NCBI RefSeq assembly: GCF_026571515.1
Contig: NW_026857783.1
Coordinates: 178,878-242,877, forward strand
Length of the DNA stretch: 64,000 nt
DNA from: Ruditapes philippinarum
Lineage: Eukaryota
Direction: 5' to 3'
The notes beneath the pieces are model-generated. The model worked only from the letters and a program-made list of their open reading frames with translations, searched no databases and was not told the DNA's origin. Numbering within the stretch: the stretch's first letter is position 1; every line of letters begins with the position of its first letter. A program made the translations under genes and the position numbers. Positions 12,906 through 49,871 of this stretch are shown here, in pieces.

Positions 12906-13128
12906 GAGCGGCATCATGACAAAACCAACATAATGCGACCAGCATTGATCCAGACCAGCCTGCGCATCCGTGCAGTTTGATCAGGATCCATGCTAGCAGT
13001 TTCTTTACTTGTTATAGGGTCTGTAGGCGAACAGCATGGATCCTGATCAGACTGCGCGGATGCACAGACTGGTCTGGATCCATGCTGGTTGCAAACCCAT
13101 GATGTTGGTTTTGTCATGGCGCGGCTCA
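12906..13128. mobile_element. MITE (family M), full copy with AAAT target-site duplication
   Basis: TIR gagcggcatcatgacaaaaccaacat ... atgttggttttgtcatggcgcggctc; internal palindromic core cctgcgcatccgtgcag / ctgcgcggatgcacag; flanks aaat|...|aaat. Confidence 0.8.
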
Positions 13129-13764
13129 AATGAGATTCAAGGATGCAATGTTGAGTTAAAATATTGGGGATATGTGTTTGTTTCTCTGTTCAATGCAGAA
13201 TGAATACCTAATCTGATGTATTTTGAACTATATAGCCAAGAATGAAAATAAAACGGCATGTGTTCATGACTAGAATATAATTTGATCTGTCAAACAGAAC
13301 AATAAATTTTCTACTTATTTCATGCTTTCCAGCTGTTTTCTGATTATTTCCTTGATTTCATAGCTACCACTTCATGACATCTTCAAATTATGACATCACA
13401 ATATCCAGGTTGATAAAAAAATAGTTGTGTAAAGTTTTTATCAAAGGATGTTTTTCAAAAATTAATGATCATGAATCTTTTATGTACTGACATGGAGTAT
13501 TGTTTAACAGATTATTTTTAAGAGCCATAGGTTCTTTTTATTTTTAGATATTTCTTAACCATGCCAATAAAAACAAAAGCTAAACAATTGGCATTTAGGA
13601 ATATATTAATTTACACATGTACAATTAAATGTCATGTCCCTGAAGAAAGAAAATTTGAAAATTGAAAGAAAATGCTAATTAACTTCTTGTTTACTCTATG
13701 ATTGTAAGAGATCATACAATTGTCAGATGTTTGTATATATTTTTTTCTTATCTTGTTTATAAAG

Positions 13765-13951
13765 GCATGCATGTTGGCATTTTACCCAGAATTTGAGGCG
13801 TGCGAGACGGATGATGTAAACATGATTCTACTGCTGGATCTGTCCAATTCTATGAAAGGAGATGCCATTGTTAGTGCCAAAAAAGTTTTACTGCTGACCC
13901 TTCAACATTTACCTTCCACCTGGAACTTTAATGTCATAGTGTTTGGAACAG
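13765..13951 (+). CDS. PARP4: VWA domain exon with MIDAS motif
   Basis: ACMLAFYPEFEACETDDVNMILLLDLSNSMKGDAIVSAKKVLLLTLQHLPSTWNFNVIVFGT; DLSNS is a DxSxS MIDAS motif; acceptor tttataaag|, donor G|gtgtgt. Confidence 0.85.
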
Positions 13952-14751
13952 GTGTGTGTGTCTTTGTGTGTATTTCTTAATCATAAGGTTAAACTGTTAG
14001 TCATTCAAGTGTTTTAATAGTAGTGGTATTGATAAAGAGACCATTTGCATCAGCACCATTCTAGAGAAAGGTAAAACAGTACATCAATGTTGTTTGACTT
14101 ATGTCTGTTCTGTTTTGCTGCTAAGTTGTCAATATGTTATGATATAAGAATCTTTCGATACCTTTACTACAACGCATTTTTAGACCTTTACGCAAATTAA
14201 GCATGGTAAGAGATAAAATTCTATAACTTATAATTTTTCAGTTACTTTTAGTCCTTTATTTCACTGTTTTAGTGTGTACAGGTGAGCTTCATAGGTCTTC
14301 CCTCGCCAGAGGTCAAGCTAAAAAGTTTTTTTTTAACAGTGTCACTTGAAATATAAAGACACTTAATAAAAACAAAACTTCACATTTATTAAACAGAACT
14401 TTTATCTTTTTCTTTGAGATTATTTTCAAGTCATCAGTAATGTTGGTTTACCCGTAACCTGGTGAATCTCTTAAATGTACCTCTCCAGCTTCCATTTTAG
14501 AATAGTCCACTATCAGTTTTGGGGATATCAAAATGAAATTTGAAGTTGCACAGTCAACAGACTGCACAGATATCCAGGCTGGCCTGTGTCTATACTGGTG
14601 ACAAAGTCAAAATACTTTAGATTCTAGCATGTGTAGGGTTCAAGTTGATATGAAAAGGTCAATGTTCATAAGACGGAGAAATAATCAAAGTAACAAATTT
14701 TTGACACATGTAGTTATTTTTAGTAACATTATGTAATTTTGTTTATTTCAG

Positions 14752-14825
14752 CCTGGAAAGAGTTGTTTCCCACTTGTGTAGCTAAAACTTCATCAAATAT
14801 GAAACAAGCATCAGAGTTTGTGATG
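14752..14825 (+). CDS. PARP4: VWA domain exon
   Basis: AWKELFPTCVAKTSSNMKQASEFVM; acceptor gtttatttcag|, donor ATG|gtaaat; phase 1 to 0. Confidence 0.65.
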
Positions 14826-14954
14826 GTAAATACACATGTATTTGTATAGAGAAAGTAAAGGAATTTTGTGACATTGCTCTTAATTTGTTTATGTCAAGCT
14901 TTGCTACTGACAGAAAAATAGGACCTTCACACTCATACGAGTGTATCTACAACA

Positions 14955-16105
14955 GGGTGTATCTTTGTTATACCCCCACAAACGAAGTTTAGGGGGGGTA
15001 TATAGGAGTCAGCTTGTCGGTCGGTTGGTCGGTCGGTCGGTCCACATCATGGTTTCCGGACGATAACTAGAGTTTGGAATGAGATATTGTAATCAGACTT
15101 GGTATATAGCAACCTTATGTGGAAACTCCGGTTGGTATTGCATTTGGACCCCCTGGAGTCAAGGTCAAGGTCAACGTTACTGAAAATAGAAAAATGGTTT
15201 CCGGACAATAACTACAGGTAGGAACGAGATATTGTTATCAAACTTGGTGTATAGCAAGCTTACATGAAGACCTGTGTTGGTATTGCATTTGGACCCCCTG
15301 AGGTCAAGGTCACCGTTACTAAAAATAGAAAAATGGTTTCCGGACAATAACTATGAATGAGATATTGTTATCAAACTTGGTGTATAGAAAGCTTATATGA
15401 AGACCTTGGTTGGTATTGCATTTGGACCCCCTGGGATCAAGGTCAAGGTCACCGTTATTTAATGGTTTCCGGACAATAACTACAGTTAGGAATGAGATAT
15501 TGTTATCAAACTTGGTGTATAGCAAGCTTATATAAAGACCTGGGTTGGTATTGCATTTGGACCCCCTGGGGTCATGGTCAAGGTCACTGTTACTAAAAAT
15601 AGAAAAATGGTTTCCAGACAGTTACTAGAGTTAGGAATGAGATATTGTTATCAAACTTGGGGTATAACAAGCTGATATGAAGACCTGGGTTGGTATTGCA
15701 TTTGGGCCCACTGGGGTCAAGGTCACTGTTACTAAAAATAGGAAAATGGTTTTCGGACAATAACTTGAGTTAGGAATGAGATATTGTAATCAAACTTGGT
15801 GTATAGCAAGCTTATATAAAGACCTGGGTTGGTATTGCATTTGGACCCCCTAGGGTCAAGGTCACCGATACAGTGTTACTAAAAATAGAAAAATGGTTTC
15901 CGGACAATAACTAGAGTTAGGAATGAGATATTGTTATCAAACTTTGTGAAAAGCAAGCTTATTCAGAGACCCCAGTTGGGATTACAATTAATTGAAATAT
16001 TTCTTTGTACACAGTTGATAGTTTGTGATCAATTTTTCTTCAGACTACTTACTTTTCAAAAAGTCAAAGTTGCTGGTGGGGGTATTAATCACCTTCAGTG
16101 ATAAG
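14955..16105 (+). mobile_element. TIR element (TTATACCCCCAC...GTGGGGGTATTA) with ~165-bp satellite x5
   Basis: 5' gttatacccccacaaacgaagtttagggggggtatataggagtcagcttgtcggtcggttggtcggtcgg; 3' gttgctggtgggggtattaatcaccttcagtgataag; internal unit ...ggtttccggacaataactagagttaggaatgagatattgttatcaaacttggtgtatagcaagctta... Confidence 0.6.
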
Positions 16106-16817
16106 TCTAGTTATTTTTTGGCACTAAAGGCCTTAAGGCAGTAATGTTTTTATCTTTGAATTTTACCTTTTACTGTTTCATGTAATAATTGATTGTACAG
16201 GGAAACTTCTGTAGTTCTTCTTTCTTATGAGAAGGAAGAACTATGTTTGTTGAAATTCACTGAGCCGTGATGCTATTAAATTTCACCTAGAAATCCAAAG
16301 CATTCAGAATGTATATGGGACATGCCATTTTGTTCTATGGACAGTGCCATTTTGATATAAGGTAGTTTTACTTTTAGTTTAGAGGTAAACACAGTTACTA
16401 GCAGCAGACTATAGGAAACAGTATGATTGTCATCATAGAACAGAAGAAGAAAAGTTTAGAAAAAAAAAGACAAAATTTAATGTATTATAATAAATGTCAT
16501 TTTGCGTGTATAAATTATTTCAGTAAATATATATTGTGACACCCCCACTTCCACCTTCAAATGGGACAAGTCTATCTGTTAATTGCATCAGAAAACATTG
16601 TATTGTCTATTTAAAGGTTGAATTGTCTGGCCCCTTTAAGACCATTTCTAGTCAAAGGAAACCACATCTGCATGACACTGCTTATTTTTTCCAGCTTCTA
16701 AACATGGACTCCTGTTTATAATCAAATGTATATTCATAAATTTAGTGTTGCCCTTGAAACAATTTTGGTAAGCTTAACTTGTTGAAGTAGCTAAATCTCA
16801 AGATAATGATATTTCAG

Positions 16818-17005
16818 AGCTTGTCTCCAACTATGGGTAACACAGAGGTTGTGAGGCCACTACATACATTCTACCTGATGAAACAGGAAAACTCCATGCA
16901 GAATGTGTTACTTATATCTGACGGACATATGAACAACACGGAACTGTTACTAAATAGTGTACGAACAAATTGCCAACATACCAGAGTGTTTACTGTAGGA
17001 GTCAG
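16818..17005 (+). CDS. PARP4: VWA domain exon
   Basis: SLSPTMGNTEVVRPLHTFYLMKQENSMQNVLLISDGHMNNTELLLNSVRTNCQHTRVFTVGV (VLLISDG... and VFTVGVG-type VWA blocks); acceptor atatttcag|, donor AG|gtaaat. Confidence 0.8.
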
Positions 17006-17745
17006 GTAAATCAATAAATACTTGGTTTAAACATATTTTTATTCAAAGTAATATATACATGTTAAAATTTACAATTTAAGCAGAAAGGAATTGGACCGAG
17101 AGCTACAATAGCTCATGGTAGTCCTCTCCTTTAACAAAAGCAATATGTTCATACATGTATATTACATGGCTTATCATAATTTTAATTAAACCCTATAAAG
17201 AAGGAAAATGAAGAGAAAAAAAATACAAATACATGTATGCAATTGATAGAAAATAATAAAGAGAAAGATGGAGAAAAGAGGAGTTTGCGGATGTTTCTAT
17301 ATCATTTGTCGTTTTGGTAGGAACATCATGTATGGAAAAAAAAACACTTTATTTTGAAGTGATAAGAAAATTGTTTGTGTTGATCAGGTATATGATTTAT
17401 AGGGATTTATAGATTGGTGAAAGTGGCAAGGAATCAAATAAGTTATAACTTGATTGCATTTTATAAAAGTGCATGTAATCATACTGTAGACAGGCTAAGA
17501 GCACATTTTTAAACAGATTTTTGAAGTTCTTATACATTCTTATTGTTCAGGTTTACCTGCTTTGTTATTAAAAATAATGTCCTAAAGATAATTTTTGTTA
17601 ATACATTATAGAAAAAGATAAGCATTTGGGCTTGATAACATATATCCCAAAGATATTTATATCGTTTATTAATGAGATGATACTTAAAAAAAAGTTGTAT
17701 AACATGAAATAAGGTAAAATACTTGAGGTTAGTGATTTGAGCATC

Positions 17746-17911
17746 AGCTCAGTCTGATCAGGATCCATGCTGTTCACTATCAGTTTCTCTACTTGTAATA
17801 GAGTTGGTAAGCGAACAGCATGGATCCTGATCAGACTGCGCGGATGCACAGGTTGATCTGGATCCATGCTGGTCACAAATGCGCAATGTTGGTTTTGTCG
17901 TGACGCGGCTC
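17746..17911. mobile_element. MITE family M, 5'-truncated copy abutting acceptor of exon 17928
   Basis: ...cagtctgatcaggatccatgctgttcactatcag...atgttggttttgtcgtgacgcggctc then atttatgtttttacag|TGG. Confidence 0.75.
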
Positions 17912-17927
17912 ATTTATGTTTTTACAG

Positions 17928-18027
17928 TGGCACAGCTGACAGACACATGTTGAGGGCTTTGGCTAGAGTTGGTGCAGGGTCCTTTGAGTACTTTGATACA
18001 AAAGTTAAATCTAAATGGGAAACAAAG
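17928..18027 (+). CDS. PARP4: VWA domain C-terminal exon
   Basis: SGTADRHMLRALARVGAGSFEYFDTKVKSKWETK; acceptor tgtttttacag| lies 14 bp after a MITE end; donor AAG|gtaaaa. Confidence 0.75.
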
Positions 18028-18391
18028 GTAAAAGTGATGGGCTGAGTATAGAAATAGTATGGTTAATTGTTTGTCATGTTGCTTAAGTTATTCCAAAATT
18101 CATGTTGTATTCCAGAAGACTGATACCTACAAACATTTCCAAAGATTTGTATGAAATAATTTTCTATTTTTCCATGAATATCTGTCAACTTCTCCTCAGA
18201 ATACATTGCATCAGTCTATGTAGGATAAAAAGACATCAGCCAAAAAATGTTTTCAACCAAATAGAAATTGAAAAATTTATCCAGCTTGGAGACTGCAGTT
18301 GATAAAGATCTGTAGAAATTGTACCCTCCCTGCAATTTGAGGTTCTTGTCTTTATTTTATCTATTATATCTAAATGTCTTTATTTAACAAG

Positions 18392-18562
18392 GTTAAATCT
18401 CAGATCAGCAAGGCCGCCCAGCCAGGTCTGACGTCAGTACAAGTGGAATGGGAACAGCATGGTGCCGATGTTCCACCTCCGGTTCAAGCCCCTCGACAAA
18501 TTACGGCCCTATTTAACGGTTCTCGTTCCGTGATATACGGATATGTTCCTAACTGTACAATG
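18392..18562 (+). CDS. PARP4: PARP4-like post-VWA exon
   Basis: VKSQISKAAQPGLTSVQVEWEQHGADVPPPVQAPRQITALFNGSRSVIYGYVPNCTM; acceptor tatttaacaag| is weak; donor ATG|gtaagt; 57 codons. Confidence 0.65.
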
Positions 18563-18926
18563 GTAAGTTCATTTTCTATTTTGTTTTCTGGTTGCTATAA
18601 TCTCTTATGGAGTATTAGAAATCTGTGTTTATATTTGCCACTTACATTTTTGTATTATATCTCCCTCTAAAAGTTATGATATTATAATTTATTTCCCTCT
18701 AAAATTATATTAATTTTGCCTTTAATATTTTTGAAAAAGACCATTGCTGGAGACTTACAACTAAATGCTCATGCAAATTTTATAAAAAAAAGAAAAGAAC
18801 TTTTTAACACATTATATTTGAATTTTATGCATCTAACTTGCATGCTATCTGTAGTATTAAATGGTAATTGTGCATAAAAATTAATATCCATATCCTCAAT
18901 ATAAGTATGAACTTCTGTAATTTTAG

Positions 18927-19007
18927 GCAACATTGAGAGCAAGTGTAGCTGGAGAAGAGGTCTCCACCATGGTATCAACCTCGGACCTCAGTATTACAAA
19001 TGGACAT
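18927..19007 (+). CDS. PARP4: PARP4-like post-VWA exon
   Basis: ATLRASVAGEEVSTMVSTSDLSITNGH; acceptor taattttag|, donor CAT|gtaaga; 27 codons. Confidence 0.6.
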
Positions 19008-19260
19008 GTAAGATTTTAAACTGTAGCATAGATTGATTATAAACTTCCCATAGCATGCCAAACATAATCATAAGTTGTTGTTTTAATATTAAAATTCAGA
19101 TATAACTTTTTTAACAATTTATCGAATATTTAGTATTGGGTCATTTGGTACGCTGACAATATATCATTATAAAATTTCTGTGAAAGTTAACTATACAGGC
19201 ATGACCTCACATGTATTTATTTAAAATTTGATAAATAGGCATAATAACTTTATTTTCCAG

Positions 19261-19341
19261 ATTTTACATCGTCTGACAGCAAGGGCAATAATCAGTGACT
19301 GGGAAAATGGAGTCTTGTCTGCTGACCGTACTGACCATGAG
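19261..19341 (+). CDS. PARP4: PARP4-like post-VWA exon
   Basis: ILHRLTARAIISDWENGVLSADRTDHE; acceptor tttattttccag|, donor GAG|gtacag. Confidence 0.65.
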
Positions 19342-19689
19342 GTACAGTAAAATTCCCCAAATCTGTGGGGTATTTATTATAGACATTTTTCACCAGTACA
19401 GGAACCATACTGTCCAGTCTTACCAGAATCATTTTTGACAGCAGTATTTCAACATTTTGACATCAGATTACTAGTACCAGTGAAATATGATTTATATCAT
19501 TCACTATATATGATCTCTAATTTATAAAAACACAGTCTTTTTATATGTTAGGCATAATAAAATTTTATCCTAAACATTTTCTTATATCAAATGTTGGTCA
19601 ATCACCAATATAACAGTCGATGTTTTGAAATATATAGTCATTCCAGCTCAACTTGACAATGAAAAAAGAGGCATAATGTTTTTTTAAGA

Positions 19690-19850
19690 TGATAAATTGC
19701 AGTCTATTATATATAGAGCATATTGAATGAGTGTTGGTTTAATACTAAATTTATTGAACGAGTTGAATAAAATCATATTATGCAAGCATAATATTTTTCT
19801 ATTCCACGAGTTAAATGAATTTAGTTTTGATTCTACACGAATATAGTATT
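19690..19850. repeat. palindromic MITE-like family C copy
   Basis: atattgaatgagtgttggtttaatactaaatttattgaacgagttgaataaaatcatattatgcaagcataatatttttctattccacgagttaaatgaatttag. Confidence 0.4.
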
Positions 19851-20096
19851 CTATTTGTCACACATATAAAAAAGAACGGTAAACTGTTAACAAGAGTCAC
19901 TTTTATTTGACGCACTATAGTGTAAAGCTAACAAGGCGCTTTAACGCTATGTTCATATATAGAGCGCCAATGACATCACATCAAAGTGTTATTACACAAG
20001 TGTTATATTGTTTTTAGTACATGGCTTTATTGTACTCCTGCACTATTAATTTAAAGAAGTAGGAAATTTCATGTATTTAATTATATTTTATTACAG

Positions 20097-20198
20097 ATAT
20101 TGAAGATGAACACTAAAGATTATATCATTGAGTTAAGTAAGGAGTACTCTATTGTCACTCAATTCACCAGCTTTGTTGCCATAGAAAAAAGAGACAAG
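20097..20198 (+). CDS. PARP4: PARP4-like exon with TSFVA motif typical of VIT/VWA-family C-terminal region
   Basis: ILKMNTKDYIIELSKEYSIVTQFTSFVAIEKRDK; acceptor ttttattacag|, donor AAG|gtatag. Confidence 0.7.
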
Positions 20199-20727
20199 GT
20201 ATAGTATTTCAATCTAAAATTTATAGTACTTGCATCAATGTTAGGGGGTTTTTTTTGTGTGCGGAGGTGGGGGTGAGTGGAGGGGATGGGGTGGTCAGGA
20301 GAGGTTTGTTGCATATCAGACTGGATCATCTAGAGTTAACCCACTAGATGCAAGATTTAAGATTACTTGCATACTTTGAACAATAAATTCCACTGTCATT
20401 ATGCATAAGTTGTATAAGTTGTAAATTTATGGGCAGCTGTAGAGAAATGGTGCTTAATAAAGATATGCGGTTCCTTTAAAAAAATTGATTATGGTTAAAA
20501 TGTAATAAAAACTCTGCTGTTACTAGTAATTATTGGTTTCAGCCTTATGGACTGTATTAAAATAATACATTTCTAGTAAAGTTTTAAAAACGATAATCAC
20601 AGCACAACAATTGTGTAATCCTTTGCGAAAAAGATTTTCTTTGCTAAATGCTCATTAGTTGACACAAAGTTAACACCAGTGAAAATAATGAAATTTCCAA
20701 ACAGAGCTGATATTACTTATGATGGTT

Positions 20728-23087: not shown

Positions 23088-23195
23088 GTAAGAATATATT
23101 TGTCTATATCAACCTTTAATAAGTTACTAGTACCTTTCTTTAATGTCAGATCATCTATAAGGGCCACCTTTTAATACACTTGAATACCTTTAAAT

Positions 23196-23430
23196 GAGCC
23201 GCGTCATGACAAAACCAACAAAGTGCGTTTGCGACCAGCATGAATCCAGACCAGCCTGCCCATCCGCGCAGTCTGATCAGGATCCATGCTGTTTGCTATC
23301 AGTTTCTCTACTTGTTATAGGGTTTGGAAGCGAACAGCATGGATCCTAATCAGACTGCGCGGATGCGCGGGCTGGTCTGGATACATGCTGGTCGCAAATG
23401 CATTATGTTGGTTTTGTTGTGACGCGGCTC
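23196..23430. mobile_element. MITE family M, full copy with AAAT TSD
   Basis: gagccgcgtcatgacaaaaccaacaaagtgcgtttgcgaccagcatgaatccagaccagcctgcccatccgcgcagtctgatcaggatccatgctg...gacgcggctc; flanks taaat|...|aaatt. Confidence 0.8.
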
Positions 23431-24349
23431 AAATTACGTTTTAATTATGTGGAAGCTTAGCAATATTTTGATTATGAAAGTACAAAAATGTTCTGTACTG
23501 GTTGGGGACCACCAAAAGCGGACAACCACCAAACCCGGACGGCCCCGAAAATGCTTAATATAGTATTTTCTTTGTTCAGTAGTTGTCAGTCACTTTTTTT
23601 TTTTTAACAATAAGTGCATGTTTCTTATATAATTTAGTAAATAAATTTATTTCAACCTCCGTAAATAGTAATATTTTAATGTCTATTTTAAGAATGTTGA
23701 TGTTGAAATTTGGGCATCAAAAAGCAATGCCTGATCTCATATACCAGCTATAATCATTTGCAAAGTAAACAATAGAATTTCCAAAACTTCAGCATTTGTT
23801 GCTGATATATTGTATATAATGTTAAAAATAAAAAATTAAAACACCCAAGCTTTTATATGAATTAAATCACGCCATGTACATATCTGGTACTGTAGTGTAG
23901 ACAATTTAGGTAATTTTGATACCCTCCTTGTCGAGCCTCAGATTTAAGTGTCAATACAATCAGAAATAATCTAACTAGTTCGTTAGTTAGGAGAAGAACC
24001 TAGCTGAACTGTGTCAAATTTTTAGGTCTCTGAGTTCGAAATTATGAAATCTGTATGGAAAATGTTCAAAAAGTGTCCAGTGATGGTCCCCGATGTTTAT
24101 TATAAAAAAGATAATAAAAAAAAAAATAATAATAATACCTAGAATGTACATGCTCATTATGTGAACCATATATACATGTTAAAAATTTTTATCAGAAAAT
24201 AACAGTATGTATTAATTCCATTTGAATATTATGCTTGTAGCTTATTTATCCAGAAGAAAGTTTCTGTATATAGGCCACCAATGTACTTAATATAATAATA
24301 TTATGAACTATTTTTCACTGGTTATAAACTTTTTTATTTATTGATCTAG

Positions 24350-24453
24350 GAAAGCCACCAAAACCAAAAAGTTCACATTTGTTTGTAAAAACTTTGACTG
24401 GCAAAACTGTGAATCTGGACTTGAATACTGACTGTACTATAGCTGACTTAAAG
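24350..24453 (+). CDS. ubiquitin-like domain, N-terminal half
   Basis: (R)KPPKPKSSHLFVKTLTGKTVNLDLNTDCTIADLK parallels ubiquitin MQIFVKTLTGKTITLEV; acceptor ttgatctag|, donor AAG|gtattt; no in-frame ATG, so it is an internal exon. Confidence 0.75.
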
Positions 24454-24790: not shown

Positions 24791-25725
24791 CAGTACAAGT
24801 GATGGGGAAAAGTAATTTTTCTCTTAATGAATTAACATTTGTCTTTTATTCCCAAGAGACATATATAAATCAAAATAATTTAGAAAGAAATGTTCTTACT
24901 TTAAGCTTATCAATTTATCTAATGAAGCCTTTCTTATACCCCTGAATGTAGATTTTAATCTTTAACCTATTTGATCCAAATGTGATTTAGACTTTGACAC
25001 CACTTGTTTAGAACCAGCCTAGTCTGCACATCCATGCAGTCTGACCACAAGGGCTCTATACTGTGGGAAGTTCAATTTTCATATTATTAGCTTGACTATT
25101 TGCAGAATAATCGAGCTAATGCAGTCACCCATTTGTTGGCGTTGGTGTCCCTGTGGTTAAGTTTTTGCGTGTAAGCTGATATCTCCATAACTACTGAAGG
25201 GAATGGATTGAAACTTCACACACTTGTTCTCTGTGATTATCTAACATGATTGGCACAAGTCCAATAACTCTTATTTGCTTTTTTTGCATAATTATGCTCC
25301 TTTTTTACTTAGAAATTCTTGTTAAAGTTTTTGCTTGTAAGCTGGTATCTTCATAGGGTTTGTGCTTTTTTGGGGACAATTTAATGCTTTCATAATAAAG
25401 CAGTGATTTACTCGATAAGACATCTTAATAACAAGCCTTTGTACCTTTTTGGACAATTTTATGTATTCATATAGGTAAGTACATGTATTATTATACTCAA
25501 TGAAACACCCTTGTGACAACTTTTTCGATTGGTGGAGCGCTGCTGTCCTCCAACAGTTCTTATTTTTAAATTGAAATCCTTTAAACTTTGGCTGAACTGT
25601 TCCAGGGCAAATCTTTTTCACAATGTCAGCAGGTCAGGAGTTCAACAATGATTTATCATGATAGCTATCCAAGAGATATAAGTCCGTTCTTTTTTTAAAC
25701 ACCATTTATTTGTTGTACAATCAAG

Positions 25726-25870
25726 GCTATGATACAAGACAAAGAGGGTATACCTCCTGACCAGCAGAGACTGGTTTACGCTGGACGTCAGCTAGTAGAT
25801 GACTGGACATTGCAGGATTATGATATACAAAATGAGTCAATGTTACATCTTGTATTGAGATTAAGGGGCG
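25726..25870 (+). CDS. ubiquitin-like domain, C-terminal half
   Basis: [48 protein letters not shown](G) parallels ubiquitin [47 protein letters not shown]; acceptor caatcaag|, donor G|gtaagt. Confidence 0.85.
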
Positions 25871-26195
25871 GTAAGTCTGTATGTCTTAAATATAGAGTAA
25901 AGGGAGATAATGCATGTTTCAATAACATCAGTCATAGTTGAATCCTTTATTTATTGGAAAAAGAGCAAAAATAAAGGATGATAAAATAGGTGTATTGTCT
26001 AAACATTATGAAGTATAATGACAATTTTTCTAATTTATAATTCTTTTGTTTTAGTTATTTTTGTCATTGTATGAAAAAAAAGTTAATTTCATGAAAAGAC
26101 TAAAACACTCTTGAATATTTGAATATTTCAAGCATTTTACTGTCTGTATGGAAATTTGTTTAACTCCAGTGAAAATGGTTATTCATTTCTTACAG

Positions 26196-26869: not shown

Positions 26870-27050
26870 TTTTATATAGCTGTTTACATTTCACTTTACT
26901 ATTACACTTTACTTTAATGATATGCATTTAATTACTATTACACTTTACTTTAATGATATGCATTTAATTACTATTACACTTTACTTTAATGATATGCATT
27001 TAATTACTATTACACTTTACTTTAATGATATGCATTTAATTAAAAAGAAA
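26870..27050 (+). repeat. 35-bp tandem repeat x~5
   Basis: tattacactttactttaatgatatgcatttaattac repeated head-to-tail. Confidence 0.75.
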
Positions 27051-27614
27051 TGAGGACACCGTTCTGGACTCACTGGTAATAATGCAGGCTGTCAACCAAT
27101 TTCTAAAATTATATTCCTTTATAAGTAAAATTATACCTATTTGCAAAAATACTTCCTATATTAAATTTTATAGTATATTCTCCAAAATTATTCCTGCGTT
27201 TGGACAAAAAGGTAATCTAAGTCCTGAAAAAAATAATGTTTTTTTGGCTTGCTATGCTGGCAATACCATTGGATTGTAATTCTAAGTAAACATCAAATCT
27301 TGTTCCTATATTATTTCATTATTTTGGCTTAAACAGGTCTAAAGCCAGTTAACAGGTTGAAAATGTTGACTTAATATCCATTCCCCTATTCTTTGTTTGA
27401 CAAAGTTACTGAGCATGGAAAGTTAGAGGTTCAATTTCTAAAATGATGCATTGCTGATTTTGAGTAATTGATTTTCCCAGCTTTAAATTTATTCAAAGTT
27501 TTTAAGATTTTAAAATCAAGATACAAAAATTGAGCTACGAACTGTATAGAGCCAAGTCAGACTGCATGGACAATCTTTATATGGCAAGTTGTATTTATGG
27601 TTTTTGAATTATAT

Positions 27615-27849
27615 GAGCCGCGTCATGACAAAACCAACATAACCCGTTTGCGACCAGCATGGATCCAGACCAGCCTGCACATCTTCGCAGTCTGATCAGG
27701 ATCCATGCTGTTCGCTTACCAACTCTATTACAAGTAGAGAAACTGATAGTCAACAGCATGGATCCTGATCAGACTGCGCGGATGCGCAGGCTGGTCTGGA
27801 TCTATGCTGGTCGCAAACCAATTCTGTTGTTTTTTTTGTGACGCGGCTC
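27615..27849. mobile_element. MITE family M, full copy with ATAT TSD
   Basis: gagccgcgtcatgacaaaaccaacataacccgtttgcgaccagcatggatccagaccagcctgcacatcttcgcagtctgatcaggatccatgctg...tgtgacgcggctc; flanks atat|...|atat. Confidence 0.8.
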
Positions 27850-28032
27850 ATATATACAGCTTAACAGATGAATTTACAGAGGTAAATCCCTTAGAGATAC
27901 AGAAACTAGTAGTCCAGTTAACTTCTGGCAGTCCAAGTTTCAAAAACATAAAGGTCTTTACATTGTAACCAAATGCATGCTTCCCCTGAAACTGAACAAT
28001 ATTTTAACCAATGTTTTTTTCTCTCTTTTTAG

Positions 28033-30035: not shown

Positions 30036-31700
30036 TCACCTGTCACAAAGTGACAGGGTGAGCTTTTGTGATCGCTTTTCGTCCGGCGTCTGTCCGGCGT
30101 CCGTCCGTCCGTAAACTTTTGCTTTAAAGGACATCTCCTCATAAACCACTGAGCCAATTTCATCCAAACTTCACAGGAATGTTCCTTTGGTGGTCACCTT
30201 GAAAAAATTGTTCAAAGAATTTAATTCCATGCAGAACTCTGGTTGCCATGGCAACCGAAAGAAAAATCTTTAAATATCTTCTTTTAAACAACCCTAAGAG
30301 CTAGAGCTAAGATATTTGGCATGAAACATCTTCTAGTGAGTGTTTACCAAGTTTGTTCAAATAAAAGCCCTGGGGTCAAAATTGGCCCCGCCCCAGGGGG
30401 TCATAGATTTTCCCTATATGCATATAGTAAAAACTTAAAAAATCTTCTTTTAAAGAACCCAAAGAGCTAGAGCTAAGATATTTGGCATGAAACATCTTCT
30501 AGTGAGTGTCTACCAAGTTTGTTTAAAAAAAAGCCCTGGGGTCAAAATTGGCCCCGCCCCAGGGGGTCATTGATTTTCCCTATATGCATATAGTAAAAAC
30601 TTAAAAAATCTTCTTTTAAAGAACCGAAAGAGCTAGAGCTAAGATATTTAGCATGAAACATGTTCTAATGGGTGTCTACCAAATTTGTTCAAATAAAAGA
30701 CCTGGGGTCAAAATTGGCCCCGCCCCAGGGGGTCATTGATTTTCCCTATATGCATATAGTAAAAAAATCTTCTTTTAAAGAAACCAAGAGCTAAGATATT
30801 TGGCATGAAACATCTTCTAGTGAGTGTCTACCAAGTTTGTTCAAATAAAAGCCCTGGGGTCAAAATTGGCCCCGCCCCATGGGGGGTCATAGATTTTCCC
30901 TATATGCATATAGTAAAAACTTAAAAAATCTTCTTTTAAAGAACCCAAAGTGCATAAGCTAAGATATTTGGCATGAAACATCTTCTAGTGAGTGTCTACT
31001 AAGTTTGTTTAAATAAAAGCCATGGGGTCAAAATTGGCCCCGCCCCAGGGGGTCATTGATTTTCCCTATATGCATAAAAATTATAGTAAAAACTTAAAAA
31101 ATCTTCTTTTAAAGAACCCAAAGAGCTAGAGCTAAGATATTTAGCATGAAACATGTTCTAATGGGTGTCTACCAAATTTGTTCAAATAAAAGCCCTGGGG
31201 TCAAAATTGGCCCCGCCCCGGGGGTCATTGATTTTCCTTATATGTGTATGGCAAAAACTTAAAAATCTTCTTTGAAAAAACCCATATAGCTAGAGATTAG
31301 ATATTAAGCATGAATCATCTTCTAATCAGTGTCTACAAAGTTTGTTTAAATAAAAGCCCCGGGGTCAAAATTGGCCCTGCCCCGGGGGTCATTGATTTTC
31401 CTTTTTTGTGTATAGCAAAAACTTAAAAATCTTCTTTGAAAAAACCCAAATAGCTAGAGTTTAGATATTAAGCATGAAACATCTTTTAGTAAATATCTAC
31501 AAAGTTTGTTCAAATAAAAGCCTGGGGGTCAAAACTGGCCCTGCCCCAGGGGTGTCATTGTTTTTAACTATATGTGTATAGTAAAAACTTAAAAAATCTT
31601 CTTTTAAAAAACCCAATGAGCTAGAACTTAGATGTTTAGCATGAAACATATCTGGCCCTCTTGTTTTAGATCTTGAGACAGCAAGATATTTTATGCCTAG
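30036..31700 (+). mobile_element. satellite-bearing element: perfect 33-bp hairpin head, (GTCCG)n tract, then ~9 units of a 165-180-bp satellite
   Basis: agctcacctgtcacaaagtgacagggtgagct hairpin at 30036-30068; tcgtccggcgtctgtccggcgtccgtccgtccg; unit ...gagctagagctaagatatttggcatgaaacatcttctagtgagtgtctaccaagtttgtt..aaagccctggggtcaaaattggccccgccccagggggtcattgattttccctatatgcatatagtaaaaac; related head at 61140-61320. Confidence 0.7.
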
Positions 31701-36919: not shown

Positions 36920-38330
36920 ACCAAAACGAAGTTTGTGGGGGGGGGGGTATATAGGAGTCACCCAGTGGTCCGTCGGTCCAGTGTTCAGTTGCATTTTTTC
37001 TTGTCTGGAGCATAACCTGAAAACTAATGGTTGGAATTCAATACAACTTCATACAATGGTCAAGCACATTGAGAGGAAGTGCAGTGCACAAGAACCATAA
37101 CTCCATCTTGACTAATTACAGAGTTATTACCCTTTGTTATTTTTCCTTGTCTGGAGCATTACTTGAAAAGTACTGGTTGGAATTCAAAACAACTTCATAC
37201 AATGGTCAAGCACAATGAGGGGATGTGCAGTGCATAAGAATCATAACTCTATCTAAAGTATCTAAAGTAATTACAGAGTTGTTGCCCTTTGTTACTTTTC
37301 CATTGCTTTTTTTGTCAGGAGCATAACTTGAAGACTTATGGCAGGCAAGCACATTGAGAGGAAGTGCAGTGCACAAAAACCATAACTTCATTTTGACTAT
37401 TTAAAGAGTTATTGCCCTTTGTTACTTTTCCTTGTCCGGAGCATAACTTGAAAACTACTGGTTGTAATTCAATACAACTTTATACAATGGTCAAGCACAT
37501 TAAGAGGAAATTCAGTGCACAAGAACCATAACTCTGTCCAGAGTAATTATTGTGTTATTGCCCTTTGTTACTTTTCCATTGGTTTTTTTTTCCTGTCCAG
37601 AGCATAACTTGAAAACTACTAATTGGAATTCAGTACAATTTCATACAATGGTCAATATATTGAGAGGAAGCATAGTGCACAGAAACCATAATCCTTTCTT
37701 GACTCATTTAAGAGTTTTTGCCCTTTGTTACTTTTTATTATCCAGTGCATAACTTGAAGACTAAAGGTTGGAATTCAATGAAACATCATACAATGGTCAA
37801 GGGCAGTGAGATGAAGTGAAGTTCACAAGAACCATAACTCTATTTGGACTAATTACAGTTATTACCCATTGTTACTTGTTTTTGTCCAGTGCATAACTTG
37901 AAAACATTTAGTTGGAATTCAATACAACTTCATACAATGGACAAGCTCAATGAGAGGAAGTTTGATGTACAATAACCATAACTCCATCTTCAGTATTTTT
38001 AGAGTTAGTGCCCTTTGTTCCTTTTCCTTGTCCAGTGCATAACTTAAAAACTTTTGTTTAGAATTCAATGCAACTTCATACAATGGTCAAGCACAACGAG
38101 AGGAAGTGAAGTGCTTAAGAAGCGTAACTCTTTCTGGACTTTTTACAGACTAATTCAATAAAACTTCATCAATGGTCAACCACATTGAAAATAAATGCAA
38201 CATACAAGAACCACAACTATCTTTAATTGCCCACAACCATAACTCTATTTCAATTCTTTGACAAGGTATTCTCTTACTAGTATTTTCCTAATTTCTGAAG
38301 CAGTTTTGCGGGGGTATTATTAAATCACAT
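36920..38330 (+). repeat. ~155-bp satellite array (~8 units) inside 5'-truncated TIR element of the GGGGGTAT family
   Basis: head aaacgaagtttgtgggggggggggtatataggagtcacccagtggtccgtcggtcc; units ...caatggtcaagcacattgagaggaagtgcagtgcacaagaaccataactc..ttattgccctttgttacttttccttgtc..; tail tgcgggggtattattaaatcac. Confidence 0.65.
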
Positions 38331-39346: not shown

Positions 39347-41095
39347 TTATACCTCCCAACAACGAAATTGTAAGGGGTGTATACTGGAATCAGCTTGTCT
39401 GTCCGTCCGTCAATCTGGCCATCCATTGGTTTTGGCTTGTACGCCCATTAACTTAAGATTCCTTTGACCAACAGCCTGCATAATTGACATGGAGGTTAGT
39501 CATGACTAGTAGATGACCCCTATTGATTTTGAGGTCACTAGGTCAAAGGTCAATGTTACCGGGACCTTGACTAAGAAAAGCTTGTCCGCCCAATAACTTA
39601 ATAAAGCTTTGACCCACAGTCTTTATATTTGCCATGGAGGTTAGTCATGATTAGTAGATGACCCCTATTGATTTTTAGGGCACTGGGTCAAAGGTCAAGG
39701 TCAAATGGACTTTGACTTCAAAAAATTTGTCCGCCCAATAACTTAAGAAACCTTTGACCCACAGTCTTCATATTTGGCATGGAGGTTAGTCATGATTAGT
39801 AGATGACCCCTATTGATTTTGAGGTCACTTGGTCAAAAGTCAAAGTCACAGGGGCCTTTACTATAAAAGCTTGTCCGCCAAATAACTTAAGTTTCCTTTA
39901 ACCACAGTCTTCATATTGGCCATGGAGGTTAGTCATGATTAGTAGATGACCCCTTTTGATTTTGAGGTCATTGGGTCAAAGGTCAAGGTCACAGAGACCT
40001 TGACATTAAAAAGTTTGTCCACCCAATAACTTAAGAAACCTTTGACCAACAGTCTTCATATTTGGCATGGAGGTTAGTCATGATTAGTAGATGACTCCTA
40101 TTGATTTTGAGGTCACTGGGTGAAAGGTTAAGGTCACAGAGGCCTTAACTATAAAAAGCTTGTCAGCCCAATAACTTAAGAAAGCTTTGACCCACAGTCT
40201 TCATATTTGGCAAGGAGGTTAGTCATGATTTGTAAATGACCCCTATAGATTTTGAAGTCACTAGGTCAAAGATCAATGTTACCCGAACCTTGACTAAGAA
40301 AAGCTTGTCCGCCCAATAACTTAAGAAAGCTTTGACCTAAAGTCTTTATATTTGCCATGCATGTTAGTCATGATAAATAGATGACCCCTATTGATTTTGA
40401 GGTCACTGGGTGAAAGGTTAAGGTCACAGGGGCCTTTACTATAAAAAGCTTGTCCGCCCAATAACTTAAGAAAGCTTTGACCTAAAGTCTTTATATTTGC
40501 CATGCATGTTAGTCATGATTAATAGATGACCTCTATAGATTTTGAGGTCACTGGGTCAAAGGTCAAGGTCACATGGACTTTGACTTCAAAAAGTTTGTCT
40601 GCCCAATAACTTAAGAAACCTTTGACCCACAGTCTTCATATTTGGCATGGAGGTTGATCATGACCATTAGGTGGCTCCTATTGATTTTTAGGTCACTGGG
40701 TCAAAGGTCAAGGTCACAGGGACCTTGATTAAAAAAGCTTTTCCCGTCAAATGCTTAAGAATGCTTTGGTCAACAGTCTTCATTTTTGTTATTGAGGTTG
40801 TTTATGACTAGTAGATGGCCTCTATTGATTTTTAGTTGACTGTGTCAAAGGTCAAGGTCACAGGGATTTTTACTAGAATAAGTTTGTCTTCTCAAATGCT
40901 TAAGAATGCCTGTCTGCAGTGTATTGATTTTGACATTCTCACATTTGAAGTATGTAGAATACATAACTTAGCAATGCACTGACTTAGTAACCACAGATTT
41001 GGCAGGGAGGTTGTCCTTGAGCTCTAAATGGCCACTGTTGATTCTGACAAAGAGGTATGCGGGGGTATTCACGCCATGACAGTGGTAGTTCTAGT
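39347..41095 (+). mobile_element. TIR element (TATACCTCCCAAC.../...GCGGGGGTATTCAC) with ~11 units of the 139-bp satellite; same family as 8501-9235
   Basis: 5' tatacctcccaacaacgaaattgtaaggggtgtatactggaatcagcttgtctgtccgtccgtc; 3' aagaggtatgcgggggtattcacgccatgacagtggtagttctagttt; ends 66 bp before acceptor of exon 41161. Confidence 0.65.
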
Positions 41096-41160
41096 TTTTT
41101 CAAAAGTATGAATCAAAATGCAGAACTAATATGAATAAGAGTTCTTTTTTTTGCATACAG

Positions 41161-42444
41161 AAAAAACCAGCAAGGAGAGCAATGAAGTCACATTTCAAAG
41201 CTCCTGAATCATCAAGTATTAGTTCACAAGCAGAAAAAGCAGAAACTGGCCTCCCTTCTCATCTTCATTTGAGTAATTGTTCCATGGCACCACAGTTGCA
41301 TCAGCTAATGGCACCACAATTGCAGCAAATGGCACCACAATTGCAGCCGCAAATGGCACCACAATTTCAGCAGCACATAGCACCACAGGTGCATCAACAA
41401 ATGGCACCACAATTGCAACAGCCACAACAACAGCTAGATATGCCACAACCTAATGCAAGAACTGATAAATTTATGTCTAGGTCTAAGCCTCCTAAATTTA
41501 TGTCTAGGTCTAAGCCTCTTGAAACTTATTCTGCATTGGAAAGGTCTGATGAATCATTGATGCATCAGATGGATAAAATTCCAACAGTGCATAATTATTT
41601 TTCAACAAGTTCTCCTTTTTCTCCTGCACCATTGAGTGCACCACCACCACCCCCACCTCCTCCAGGGGATACCCCAAGACCCACACCACAACTAGGGGTT
41701 GCTATTATTCCTTCATCTTTTCAAGTAGCATCTAGTTATCAAGCTCAGATACCAAGTTTTGGTTTTGGTGCAACAACGGGTGCATCACCACAACCCCCAC
41801 CTTCATCAAATAATGCGACTATACCACCCCCATGTCCTCCAATGCTTGCCCACAGATTCCAACCATCGAGAGCTCCAAGCTATTTATCTTTCGAAGTAGA
41901 GCCTAGATATGCAGCTAAAGCACCAAGTTTTGCTTTTAGTGCAACAACGGGTGCATCTCCACCACCACCACCTCCTTCAAAGGAAGCTCACAGACCACCA
42001 CCTCCACCAGGGGGTGCCCCCAGACCAACACCACCACCACCTCCAGGGGGTGCTCCCAGACCACCACCACCTCCAGGGGGTGCTCCCAGACCAGCACCAC
42101 CACCACCTCCAAGGGATGCTCCCAGACCTCCAGCTTCTCCAAGGGGTGCTCCTAGCCCTTCATCTTCTCTAGTAACATCTAGACATCCAGCTCCAGATCC
42201 AAGTTTTTCTTTTGGTGCAACAACTGGTGGATCTTTGGAAATGCTAAAAAGTTGTCCCAATATTAGCCCTATTAAGAGGATGATTGCAATGTCATTATCT
42301 AAATCTGCTGTTGATGATAATGATATGGAGTTTACCAAAGCCTCTAAGCAGGAAAGCAAAGAAATACCTGAGAAGAAAAGCATTGAAGCTCATGTTAGAA
42401 GAAATTATGGGGGAAGGAGGGTAGATATGCGTGAACTTCAAGAG
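41161..42444 (+). CDS. 1284-nt low-complexity exon: Q/P-rich MAPQLQQ repeats, FG-type PSFGFGATTGASP repeats, polyproline PPPPGGAPRP repeats
   Basis: long ORF in frame from acceptor ttttttttgcatacag| (41159-41160) to donor GAG|gtttgt (42445); 428 codons; repeat structure explains the overlapping antisense ORFs. Confidence 0.7.
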
Positions 42445-42519
42445 GTTTGTAAAACATAACACTTTTATAAGGTTTGACTTTCTTAATATACAGTACAGCT
42501 TTAACAATTTTTCCAAAGT

Positions 42520-47439: not shown

Positions 47440-48110
47440 ATGTGGGAGCATATAGCGTTGCACTTGTCCGTTAGTCCGTCCGTCCGTCAGTTTGTCCAGC
47501 CGTACGTCCCGAAATCTTGTGAACGCAACTCCTCTTAAACCAGATGGCAGATTTTCCTTAAACTTACAGGGATGAACAACCTTAATGTGTAGATGGTAGT
47601 AAAGGAAGGAATTTTCGCTGCGACCAAATTTAACAGAATTATGGCCCTTTGTTGATTTTTTCACTAGATACTATGTAGAAATTTTTTGAACGCAACTCCT
47701 CTTAAACCGGATGGCAGATTTTGCTTAAACTTACAGGGATGAACAACCTTCAGGTGTAGATGGTAGTAAAGGAAGGAATTTTCGCTGCGACCAAATTTTA
47801 CAGAATTATGGCCCTTTGTTGATTTTTTCACTATATACTATGTAGAAATTTTGTGAACGCAACTCCTCTTAAACCGGATGGCAGATTTTGCTGAAACTTA
47901 CAGGGATGAACAACCTTCAGGTGTAGATGGTAGTAAAGGAAGGAATTTTGCTGCGACCAAATTTAACAGAATTATGGCCCTTTGTTGATTTTTAGCTTTC
48001 AACTTGTGGCACATGTAGTCCAAAAAATATTTGACCTAGAGTCATAAGATTGACAGAACAGTGGCGTGTGAGGGCATCCGTGTCCTATGGACACATTTCT
48101 AGTCTTTAAA
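47440..48110 (+). mobile_element. second copy of the ATGCCCCCAC...GTGAGGGCAT element with 3 units of the 180-bp satellite
   Basis: near-identical to 3205-4385 (ttattatgcccccacaatgtgggagcatatagcgttgcacttgtccg ... cagtggcgtgtgagggcatccgtgtcctatggacacatttctag). Confidence 0.65.
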
Positions 48111-48224
48111 TGTTTCTGTAGTCCTAAACTCACTTAATTTGTTAAATTGATTTAACTGCTTTGAATTTTAAAAAAAGGTCAGTATTAAAGTACAAAAATT
48201 AAGCAACCAAAAGTATATAGCGTG

Positions 48225-48815
48225 GTCAGACTGCACAGATGTTCAGGCTAGCCTGGTCAGACTGCATAGATGTTCAGAGCTAACTTGGTCAGACTGCACA
48301 GATGTTCAGGCTAGCCTGGTCAGACTGCACAGTTGTTCAGGCTAGCCTGGTCAGACTACACAGTTGTTCAGGCTAGCGTGGTCAGACTACACAGATGTTC
48401 AGGCTAGCCTGGTCAGACTGCACAGATGTTCAGGCTAGCCAGGTCAGACTGCATAGATGTTCAGGCAAGCCTGGTCAGACTGCATAGATGTTCAGGCTAC
48501 CCTGGTCAGACTGCATAGATGTTCAGACTAGCCTGGTCAGACTGCATAGATGTTCAGGCTACCCTGGTCAGACTGTGCATTTGTTTAGTCTAGCCTGATC
48601 AGACTGCACATATGTTCAGACTAGCCTGGTCAGACTTCACAGTTGTTCAGGCTAGCCTGTTCATACTGCACAGATGTTCAGGCTACCCTGGTCAGACTGT
48701 GCAGATGACCAGGCTAGCCTGATAAGACTGCACAGATGTTCAATCTAGCCTGGTCAGACTGCAGAGATGTTCAGGCTAACCTGGTCAAACTGCACAGATT
48801 TTCAGGCTAGCCTTG
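48225..48815 (+). repeat. 31-32-bp minisatellite, ~19 units, derived from MITE family M core
   Basis: unit cctggtcagactgcacagatgttcaggctag is ~24/31 identical to the MITE segment cctgatcagactgcgcggatgcgcaggctgg. Confidence 0.8.
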
Positions 48816-49007
48816 GTTTATATTTATTTTTATTTAAAAAAAAACAGGTTTAATGTCAAACCAAGATTTGTTGTTTTGGGCATTCTTAAGAGATCTTGTT
48901 TTCCTGTATTTTGTTATTGTCCTTGACTTTATGAAGTCTAATAATGAAGTTTGGTCAAACCACTCTAGCATGTGCATCTTTGTTCAGCTGTTTGTGCAGT
49001 TATAATT

Positions 49008-49212
49008 GAGCCGTGTCACAACAAAACCAACATAATTGGTTTACGACCAGCACAGTCTGATCAGGATCCATGCTGTTCGCTATCAGTATCTCTACTTGTT
49101 TTAGGGTTTGTAAGCGAACAGCATGGATCCTGATCAGATCTGGGGATGCACAGGCTGGTCTTGATCCATGCTAGTCGCAACCCATTATGTTGGTTTTGTC
49201 ATAGTGCGGCTC
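49008..49212. mobile_element. MITE family M (internally deleted copy)
   Basis: gagccgtgtcacaacaaaaccaacataattggtttacgaccagcacagtctgatcaggatccatgctg...atgttggttttgtcatagtgcggctc. Confidence 0.7.
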
Positions 49213-49343
49213 AAATATATTCATACTGTCTTCAATATTTCATGCAAACTTTAAACATTTCATCCTTTTGTTAATCTATTTCCTTGTCTGTAATAGTACT
49301 TTTTCACTTTATAATGTACACTTGTATTCAAATGATATTTTAG

Positions 49344-49418
49344 GCTCAATTATTAGCCAGGGGTTACGTTTTGGTGCGAGTCGTAAAGTTGTGGTTGAGA
49401 AAGAACAAGAGAAAAGAG
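49344..49418 (+). CDS. short exon
   Basis: (G)SIISQGLRFGASRKVVVEKEQEKR; acceptor gatattttag|, donor G|gtaaaa; phase 1 to 1. Confidence 0.4.
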
Positions 49419-49632
49419 GTAAAACTTTCCATGCTTTGTAGTAATTTTATTTTTTCATAGTGATATGTCAAAATTATATGTTTATGTCCATGCAAATGAT
49501 CAGTTCCTTAATTCCATGTAAGTAACCTTACTTTGCTGATATTGTACACCTGTGTTGAATTGGAAACCTTGATATAAGAACAAACACATAGTTATATGAG
49601 TGTAGTATATAAACAGGTATGGTTTACAAATG

Positions 49633-49871
49633 AGCCGCGTCATGACAAAACCAACATAATGGGTTTGCGACCAGCATGGGTCCAGACTAGCCTGCGCATC
49701 CGTGCAGTCTGAAAGGATCCATACTGTTCGCTATCAGTTTATTTACTTGTTACATGTATAGGGTCTGTGAGCAAACAGCATGGATCCTGATCAGACTGTG
49801 TGGATATGCAGGCTGGTATGGATCCATGCTGGTCGCAAACGCATTATGTTGGTTTTGTCGTGACGCGGCTC
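49633..49871. mobile_element. MITE family M, full copy
   Basis: gagccgcgtcatgacaaaaccaacataatgggtttgcgaccagcatgggtccagactagcctgcgcatccgtgcagtctgaaaggatcc...tcgtgacgcggctc. Confidence 0.8.

Follow-up and report, generated by a model that had tools for sequence, protein, structure and literature searches.

Six copies of one 235-bp repeat lie in a stretch of 64,000 nucleotides of the Ruditapes philippinarum genome (assembly GCF_026571515.1, contig NW_026857783.1, positions 178,878 to 242,877 of the forward strand), hereafter the window, most or all of them probably in introns of a PARP4-like gene. We read them, with a probability of about 0.62, as one non-autonomous class II transposon, a 235-bp foldback miniature inverted-repeat transposable element (MITE) of a bivalve mollusc that most likely belongs to the Sola superfamily and, within it, to the Sola1 group.

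An earlier inspection of the letters alone (the sequence-only reading) had already proposed six copies of a 235-bp element, and scans with the terminus, the core and a full profile bear this out. The profile, built from the copies, found exactly six loci in the window (nhmmer, E-values 1e-84 to 2e-59). The 24-nt terminus GAGCCGCGTCATGACAAAACCAAC occurs 10 times over both strands with up to 3 mismatches (0.00 expected from dinucleotide-preserving shuffles), and the core GCGCATCCGCGCAG 7 times with up to 2 mismatches (0.01 expected). In the alignment, pairwise identity among the six copies was 83.6-91.0%, towards the low end of the 85-95% that had been estimated by eye. Four of the six start positions given before were right, while copy 2 starts at 17738 (not 17746) and copy 6 at 49632 (not 49633). 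The copies, with their target-site duplications (TSDs) or flanking tetranucleotides, are the following:

12906-13127, plus strand: MITE copy 1, 222 bp, with two small internal deletions
12902-12905 and 13128-13131: TSD of copy 1, AAAT and AAAT
17738-17911, plus strand: MITE copy 2, 174 bp, 5'-truncated, consensus positions ~62-235 kept and the first ~61 nt gone
17912-17915: right flank of copy 2, ATTT
23196-23430, plus strand: MITE copy 3, full length, 235 bp
23192-23195 and 23431-23434: TSD of copy 3, AAAT and AAAT
27615-27849, minus strand: MITE copy 4, full length, 235 bp, with the ~33-bp centre in the reverse direction to that of the other five
27611-27614 and 27850-27853: TSD of copy 4, ATAT and ATAT
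49008-49212, plus strand: MITE copy 5, 205 bp, with a 28-nt deletion within the left nested hairpin; the most diverged copy, 10.2% from the consensus
Flanks of copy 5: AATT and AAAT, one mismatch
49632-49871, plus strand: MITE copy 6, 240 bp, its centre enlarged by a 6-nt insertion
Flanks of copy 6: AAAT and AGTA, TSD not preserved

Copy 2 has no left terminus and therefore cannot be mobilised, while the inverted centre of copy 4 indicates that this copy was inserted in the opposite orientation.

Anatomy, relatives and target sites

In the 235-bp consensus, the first 101 nt and the last 101 nt are complementary at 99 of 101 positions, around a centre of ~33 nt. Each half begins with a 35-bp outer terminus (GAGCCGCGTCATGACAAAACCAACATAATGGGTTT), followed by a 66-nt module; the ~33-bp unique centre then leads to the mirrored module and terminus. 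The inverted-repeat termini of the sequence-only reading are thus real, but the 24 bp given for them understated what is a foldback arm of ~101 bp, and the palindromic core described there corresponds to the apex of the 66-nt module in each arm. This module is self-complementary (apex CTGCGC-ATCC-GCGCAG), the two nested hairpins having z-scores of -8.1 and -10.7. Folded as single-stranded DNA, copy 3 forms one long hairpin of -113.9 kcal/mol, compared with -34.4 +/- 3.5 kcal/mol for shuffled sequences (z = -22.5). With arms so nearly identical, only the centre reveals the orientation of a copy, and by it copy 4 is opposite to the other five. Module deletions, such as the 28 nt lost from copy 5 or those of a 135-bp derivative with one module on a metagenome contig (L005:3842-3976), are of the kind that nested palindromes invite, and the one-module derivative is as expected if the transposase needs the termini alone.

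The consensus has no coding capacity, with stops breaking every frame, and gave no protein match; no tRNA was found in the window, and the element has no tRNA-like head. Taken together, a length under ~800 bp, the absence of coding sequence, terminal inverted repeats (TIRs), a TSD of fixed length and multiple dispersed copies leave us nearly certain that these sequences are a MITE. Hairpins of ~100 bp that would be very stable when transcribed in pre-mRNA might otherwise be taken for host structured-RNA genes (microRNA or small interfering RNA precursors, or intronic regulatory hairpins) conserved for their function, and five of the six copies, judged by the element centre, do stand in the orientation of the gene. 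We consider this very improbable. With palindromic arms, orientation has almost no effect on the RNA; the window has no match to any Rfam family; the copies decay freely (6-10% from the consensus, with deletions and one truncation); and TSDs together with hundreds of dispersed copies are signatures of transposition.

Related sequences were also located elsewhere. The 24-nt terminus, made degenerate at 3 positions, had no exact match in metagenome, viral and prokaryotic genome collections. A scan with the conserved arm core matched no prokaryotic genome and identified diverged relatives on three contigs of one Joint Genome Institute (JGI) metagenome (L001-L003). Querying a protein database with three forward translations of the consensus, which exploits the spurious open reading frames (ORFs) called across repeats on metagenome contigs, yielded 437 "hypothetical proteins" (E <= 1e-3), of which almost all came from JGI metagenomes. 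Seven of these ORFs were traced to DNA (L004-L010), where the copies have the same termini and centre and differ from the consensus by 3.4-6.4%, so that the DNA loci with related copies number 10 (L001-L010). One metagenome contig shares another repeat with the window at 95-96% identity, which implies that this bivalve, or one closely related to it, contributed DNA to the metagenomes. Judging from the 437 derived ORFs and the 10 loci in unrelated contexts, the family appears to be high-copy outside the window. Some metagenome copies are found ~0.5-2 kb from exon-like ORFs of unrelated genes (a CUB domain ORF at L007:3359-3682 and an APCDDC domain ORF at L008:191-658), positions consistent with a preference for, or tolerance of, genic regions. 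Full-text literature gave nothing relevant for pieces of the element sequence, and the text portions compared of curated bivalve transposable element libraries held no entry with this terminus.

The sequences flanking the six copies, compared over 300 bp, are mutually unrelated, apart from the physical overlap expected for the neighbours 5 and 6, and the profile alignments end at the element termini. Segmental duplication, named beforehand as the finding that would overturn the claim of insertion, is therefore not what we see, and the insertion of a MITE family copy by copy is supported. One could still argue that the gene region underwent segmental or tandem duplication and that the copies are parts of what was duplicated, as copies 5 and 6 are separated by only 420 bp and the window is full of tandem arrays. 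This is barely conceivable for an element whose similarity stops exactly at its termini amid unrelated flanks, of which one copy is inverted, whose copies have 4-bp duplications of their own and which stands in unrelated contexts at ten other loci.

Clean 4-bp A/T duplications had been reported for three of five full copies, which we confirm (AAAT/AAAT in copies 1 and 3, ATAT/ATAT in copy 4), and the pattern, whose failure across the genome had been the other stated ground for refutation, holds outside the window, with AWWT duplications both in DNA copies and in ORFs that read through the element at other loci. Fourteen DNA copies retain both ends, and nine of them are flanked by identical 4-mers (AAAT six times, ATAT three times). 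Nineteen ORFs read through the whole element, and 15 of these are concordant by their junction codons, five as ATTT pairs; with the two that repeat DNA loci counted above set aside, 13 of the remaining 17 pairs are concordant. Among the 120 ORFs retrieved, junction codons give WWT to the left of the element in 38 of 40, and the right flank has A first in 33 of the 35 listed. For comparison, AWWT makes up 5.2% of the 4-mers in the window. The 22 concordant pairs out of 31 have P ~3e-6 under an AWWT-only null, and the DNA copies alone P 3e-17 against the window background. Junction codons and TSD pairs together indicate that AWWT is the target and that it is duplicated. Almost all flanks are AAAT, ATAT, ATTT or AATT, virtually every clean copy has A at position 1 and T at position 4 of the tetranucleotide, and AAAT occurs about as often as ATTT, which is what symmetric ends would give.

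A TA or TWA duplication is the criterion for Tc1/mariner and PIF/Harbinger, and a TTAA duplication that for piggyBac, Kolobok and Sola3. We rejected a 2-bp (TA, Tc1/mariner) or 3-bp (TWA, PIF/Harbinger) TSD, for which the shifted boundaries fit worse, as well as piggyBac, Kolobok and Sola3, there being no TTAA in the 14 DNA copies or the 19 ORF-derived pairs.

Superfamily assignment

A hallmark of Sola1, according to PMC3845634 (citing Bao et al. 2009), is a 4-bp AWWT duplication, and all of Sola1, Sola2 and Sola3 have been reported in bivalves (PMC10294476). The AWWT duplication that characterises Sola1 is found in our element, this being a trait common to Sola2. As a bivalve comparison we used three Sola1 consensuses of Anadara kagoshimensis from a curated class II library (Martelossi et al. 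2023, PMC10294476), whose termini are GACTGCCGTCATGAGAAAAGGGCCCTTA (a perfect TIR), GTGTCAGCGCATGAGAAAAAGGGGCTTA and GACGTTCCGCAAGCGAAAAGGGCCCTTA. The MITE terminus GAGCCGCGTCATGACAAAACCAACATAA agrees with the first of them (GACTGCCGTCATGAGAAAAGGGCC...) at 14 of 20 anchored positions (shuffle p ~3e-4), and the diverged relatives L001 and L003 have the identical CATGAGAAAA at positions 10-19, as in Anadara Sola1. Within the 400 kb of library text searched, this 10-mer has two occurrences, both within ~20 nt of the start of a Sola1 consensus (_21 and _22), and its reverse complement one, at the 3' end of _21. On these grounds we consider membership in the Sola superfamily quite likely, and favour the Sola1 group with more reserve, somewhat above even odds.

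The MITE could instead have been mobilised by another transposase that duplicates 4 bp of A/T-rich target, such as that of Sola2 or, less likely, of Ginger2 or another group. Sola2 elements are flanked by AWWT, ATAT, AAAT or ATTT duplications (PMC3627910), some Dictyostelium Sola2 ends begin with GAGCATTT or GAATATTT after AAAT, 14 curated Sola2 families are known from bivalves (PMC10294476), and the failure to find a partner transposase in the window or the fetched loci also counts on this side. Speaking for Sola1, terminal positions 7-19 (CGTCATGA-AAAA, or CATGAGAAAA in variants) match bivalve Sola1 termini, whereas the Sola2 termini compared, all of them dictyostelid, share GA(G/A) with the MITE, those of Dictyostelium having the first 2-4 bases alone in common with it. 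Ginger2, in turn, prefers TATA, none of which was seen here. Mobilisation by one of these other transposases thus seems possible, although clearly the less probable course.

Several observations weigh against a Sola1 MITE inserted in this way. The Repbase rule for non-autonomous elements allows up to 1 mismatch over positions 1-11 (PMC4455052), and in this strict form it failed, GAGCCGCGTCA and GACTGCCGTCA having 4 mismatches in the first 11. A Sola1 transposase (Anadara core query, tblastn) had no match in the window or in 12 fetched loci, and the proposed link to such a transposase draws on just two features, the TSD and the terminus. Sola2 is likewise flanked by AWWT duplications, and GAGC is one of the ways in which its elements begin. 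Five of the 14 DNA copies with both ends are without a perfect TSD, their flanks differing by one to three bases. Two orthologous PARP4 loci (L011 and L012), from compact and GC-richer genomes, are without the MITE, and they gave gene structure and no empty site. Finally, the metagenome copies were picked from the best-scoring matches, and their low divergence is therefore biased.

If the Sola1 assignment is correct, a DDD transposase encoded elsewhere in the genome would bind the two identical termini, excise the element and insert it where a staggered 4-bp cut opens an AWWT tetranucleotide, as known members of the family suggest, and repair of that cut would leave AAAT, ATAT, ATTT or AATT duplications. 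Copies in the AT-rich introns of the PARP4-like gene would be transcribed with the pre-mRNA and spliced out, and have since decayed, losing CpGs fastest and, in the case of copy 2, the left end.

The PARP4-like gene and neighbouring repeats

The host gene, which has PARP catalytic, VIT and VWA regions and reads on the plus strand, is PARP4-like; its best named relative is a Crassostrea gigas "poly [ADP-ribose] polymerase 4-like" protein (69% identity over the VIT part). PARP4 homologues place exons between 1438 and 20198 (tblastn), and the ORFs of the two compact orthologous loci are colinear with window 651-20201, then with 24358-24453 and 25717-25869. Far downstream, 53996-54316 has a weak C-terminal match to an ORF flagged PARP4_MVP-ID in its source index (E 8e-4; pairwise 2e-5), a match to the MVP-interaction domain that Pfam did not confirm. 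The sequence-only reading had put the copies mostly in introns of one large gene. For copies 1-3 this is well supported by the colinear ortholog ORFs, which place copy 3 between the exons at ~20088-20201 and 24358-24453; copies 4-6 are probably intronic too, the single anchor for them being the weak match at 53996-54316, with which the gene would exceed 50 kb. The two exons next to copies 1 and 2 are:

12742-12879, plus strand: PARP4-like exon (tblastn of PARP4 homologues), its donor followed by copy 1
17928-18027, plus strand: PARP4-like VWA exon (tblastn, sequence), its acceptor region abutting copy 2

The distances to the splice sites given before, 26 nt after a donor and 14 nt before an acceptor AG, proved exact. 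The first exon ends at 12879, with its donor GT at 12880-81 (GTGATT), and copy 1 starts 26 nt into the intron. At the other intron, the last base of copy 2 is 17911, and ATTTATGTTTTTAC-AG follows, with the AG at 17926-27 and the exon start at 17928. The exon upstream of this intron ends ...GTC AG, before gtaaat, at 17005, and the frame joins FTVGVS to GTADRH(ML), as in PARP4 VWA domains. Within 40 nt of the acceptor, the only branch-point-like motifs (URAY/yUnAy) at a workable distance are UGAC, with its A at 17903 inside the MITE terminus and 25 nt from exon 17928, and CUCAU, whose A is the base just outside the MITE (17912), 16 nt from the exon. From these motif positions, the earlier placement of the branch point and polypyrimidine tract at the MITE edge is a reasonable one, for a branch point that is predicted, and it is a fair inference that the insertion of copy 2 displaced the original branch point and that the MITE end now supplies the branch-point region and part of the pyrimidine tract. 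That a splice site lies no more than 30 nt from two of the six copies exceeds chance only weakly; by a rough estimate, ~7% of the introns' length, in the part of the gene that is well annotated, is that near a junction. AWWT targets are also common in T-rich acceptor regions.

A further step would be to regard the intronic copies as not neutral, the intron that ends at 17927 having taken over the right terminus of copy 2 for its branch point and pyrimidine tract, and the ~100-bp perfect hairpins transcribed in the gene feeding double-stranded RNA pathways (A-to-I editing, endogenous small interfering RNAs). We find this unlikely; if true, a Sola1-type foldback MITE family would shape the splicing and RNA processing of bivalve host genes.

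Other parts of the gene region were also apparent. An exon at 25699-25938 (plus strand) encodes a ubiquitin-like domain (Pfam ubiquitin, 4e-18) that ends in LRLRGG and is colinear with an ORF of the orthologous locus L011 (E 3e-16), and the PARP4-like protein appears to have this domain after the VWA domain. A short exon-like ORF at 49343-49419 (plus strand; ttttag, then GCTCAATT...AAAAGAG, then gtaaaa), for which no homologue was found, stands between copies 5 and 6, ~130 nt downstream of the former and 212 nt upstream of the latter. At 41131-42459 (plus strand), a 442-aa Q/P-rich ORF has MAPQLQQ repeats and, after them, repeated PPPPPGGAPR units, encoded by 30/36/66-bp tandem repeats. Pfam gave no match for this ORF, which is either a very large low-complexity exon of the PARP4-like gene or a separate gene.

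Some neighbouring repeats resemble parts of the MITE:

48218-48813, unstranded: 31-bp minisatellite, 19 units with 86% matches, unit TAGCCTGGTCAGACTGCACAGATGTTCAGGC, 195 bp upstream of copy 5
14556-14611, unstranded: solitary diverged hairpin module (~57 bp), nhmmer E 8.6e-6
25006-25067, unstranded: solitary diverged hairpin module (~57 bp), nhmmer E 6.9e-6

The unit of the minisatellite resembles the palindromic core of the MITE arm (CCTGATCAGACTGCGCGGATGCGCAGGCTGG), with differences of the CpG-to-TpG/CpA type, and the array's left border (GCAACCAAAAGTATATAGC) is similar to the stem in an older relative of the MITE hairpin module. The array is probably an expansion of the hairpin module within an older related element, as far as these resemblances go. 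Further solitary ~57-bp modules were observed on metagenome contigs, at L004:6678-6748 and at L001:2490-2565 and 1783-1825. The modules follow the pattern CCAGyATrGAnCC-AGnCCAGCCTG-CrCAT..GyGCAG-TCTGACCAGG...ATACTG, and as they lie outside any full MITE, the module must be common to at least one older repeat family.

Tandem arrays are frequent in the window. Two kinds occur each at two distant places, one of 167 bp (3508-4261 and 47511-47993) and one of 145 bp (8599-9022 and 39435-40888); the others are at 15049-15962 (139 bp), 30263-31649 (166 bp), 36995-38148 (146/160 bp), 54548-55621 (173 bp) and 61629-62386 (333 bp). By analogy, the 140-170-bp arrays would match the pattern described for the pearl/DINE-1-like, Helitron-associated tandem-repeat elements of bivalves. 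Together, arrays and MITEs make the introns of the PARP4-like gene very repeat-rich. In addition, a 36-bp unit is repeated 4.1 times with 100% identity at 26896-27042, 570 bp upstream of copy 4, and is a very young tandem duplication.

With bivalve genomes so rich in pearl/DINE-1-like elements, and several arrays of that style in the window, the six copies might be thought to represent a pearl/DINE-1-like (Helitron-related) element, or else a short interspersed nuclear element or other retroposon. This is highly improbable for an element that lacks a tRNA-like head, an A-tail, an internal tandem core and a microsatellite, and that has arms of ~101 bp with a 4-bp AWWT duplication instead of the 10-20-bp inverted repeats and putative AA duplication of pearl. 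Membership in pearl/DTC84/DINE-1-like elements was accordingly rejected, the element having no tandem core, microsatellite, short subterminal repeats or AA duplication.

Decay of the copies and known systems

Measured against a 13-copy consensus, the window copies have diverged by 6.0-10.2%, with 4.1-7.8% at non-CpG sites and 12.5-27% at CpG sites. None is near-identical to another, one is truncated and two have lost their TSDs, and the description of the family as recently active was therefore overstated; clearly, it was once prolific. In the metagenome copies, 0-22% of CpG sites have changed, and non-CpG divergence is modestly higher in the window copies than in these. The faster loss of CpGs would fit germline methylation. 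As for the contrast at CpG sites between window and metagenome copies, it may reflect gene-body methylation or merely the biased choice of the metagenome copies.

DNA transposons and MITEs dominate bivalve genomes, where Sola has already been reported (PMC10294476), and a MITE family of this sort is ordinary for such a genome and no surprise to a transposon specialist. Its consensus, AWWT TSD and Sola1-like tips can be used for masking in this bivalve genome and offer a handle on the autonomous Sola1 partner. The copies also illustrate ordinary effects of MITEs in genes, namely an insertion so near an acceptor that it would now have to supply the branch-point region, and long hairpins in pre-mRNA.

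In foldback-type MITEs, nearly the whole element is one long inverted repeat with a short centre, and nothing in it is coding, as here. Drosophila Foldback elements have long, internally repetitive arms and make 9-bp duplications; our MITE differs from them in its small size, its 4-bp AWWT duplication and its Sola1-like tips. Among bivalve repeats, pearl/DTC84 elements (PMC3879986) resemble the MITE in being abundant in bivalves and in linking interspersed elements to tandem arrays, as with the 31-bp minisatellite. They differ in their build, with tandem repeats at the centre, a microsatellite, inverted repeats of 10-20 bp and a putative AA duplication, none of which the MITE has.

The Sola2 elements DFa and PPa of dictyostelids (PMC3627910) share with the MITE a 4-bp A/T-rich TSD, and some Sola2 ends start with GAGC or GAAT. 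They are amoebal elements of 10-15 kb with 12-22-bp TIRs and have no further similarity to it. The Sola1_NA elements of Bombyx mori and Rhodnius prolixus are non-coding, 248-709 bp long, present in tens to hundreds of copies and dependent on the Sola1 transposase in trans (PMC3845634). Like them, the MITE is short and non-coding, with TIRs and a 4-bp TSD (AWWT or AWDT preferred in the insects). It differs from them in its host phylum and in its termini (GGACCGTTTATTTTGAAAG... compared with GAGCCGCGTCATGACAAAAC...), and their TIRs are ~28-36 bp long, whereas the MITE is a near-complete foldback with nested hairpins. The Sola1 elements of Anadara kagoshimensis share with it a bivalve host and the 14 of 20 terminal positions. 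These are elements of ~5 kb that carry a transposase, and besides the 4 mismatches in the first 11 positions they are unrelated to the MITE past position ~20 (GGGCCCTTA compared with CCAACATAA); they are not its direct parent.

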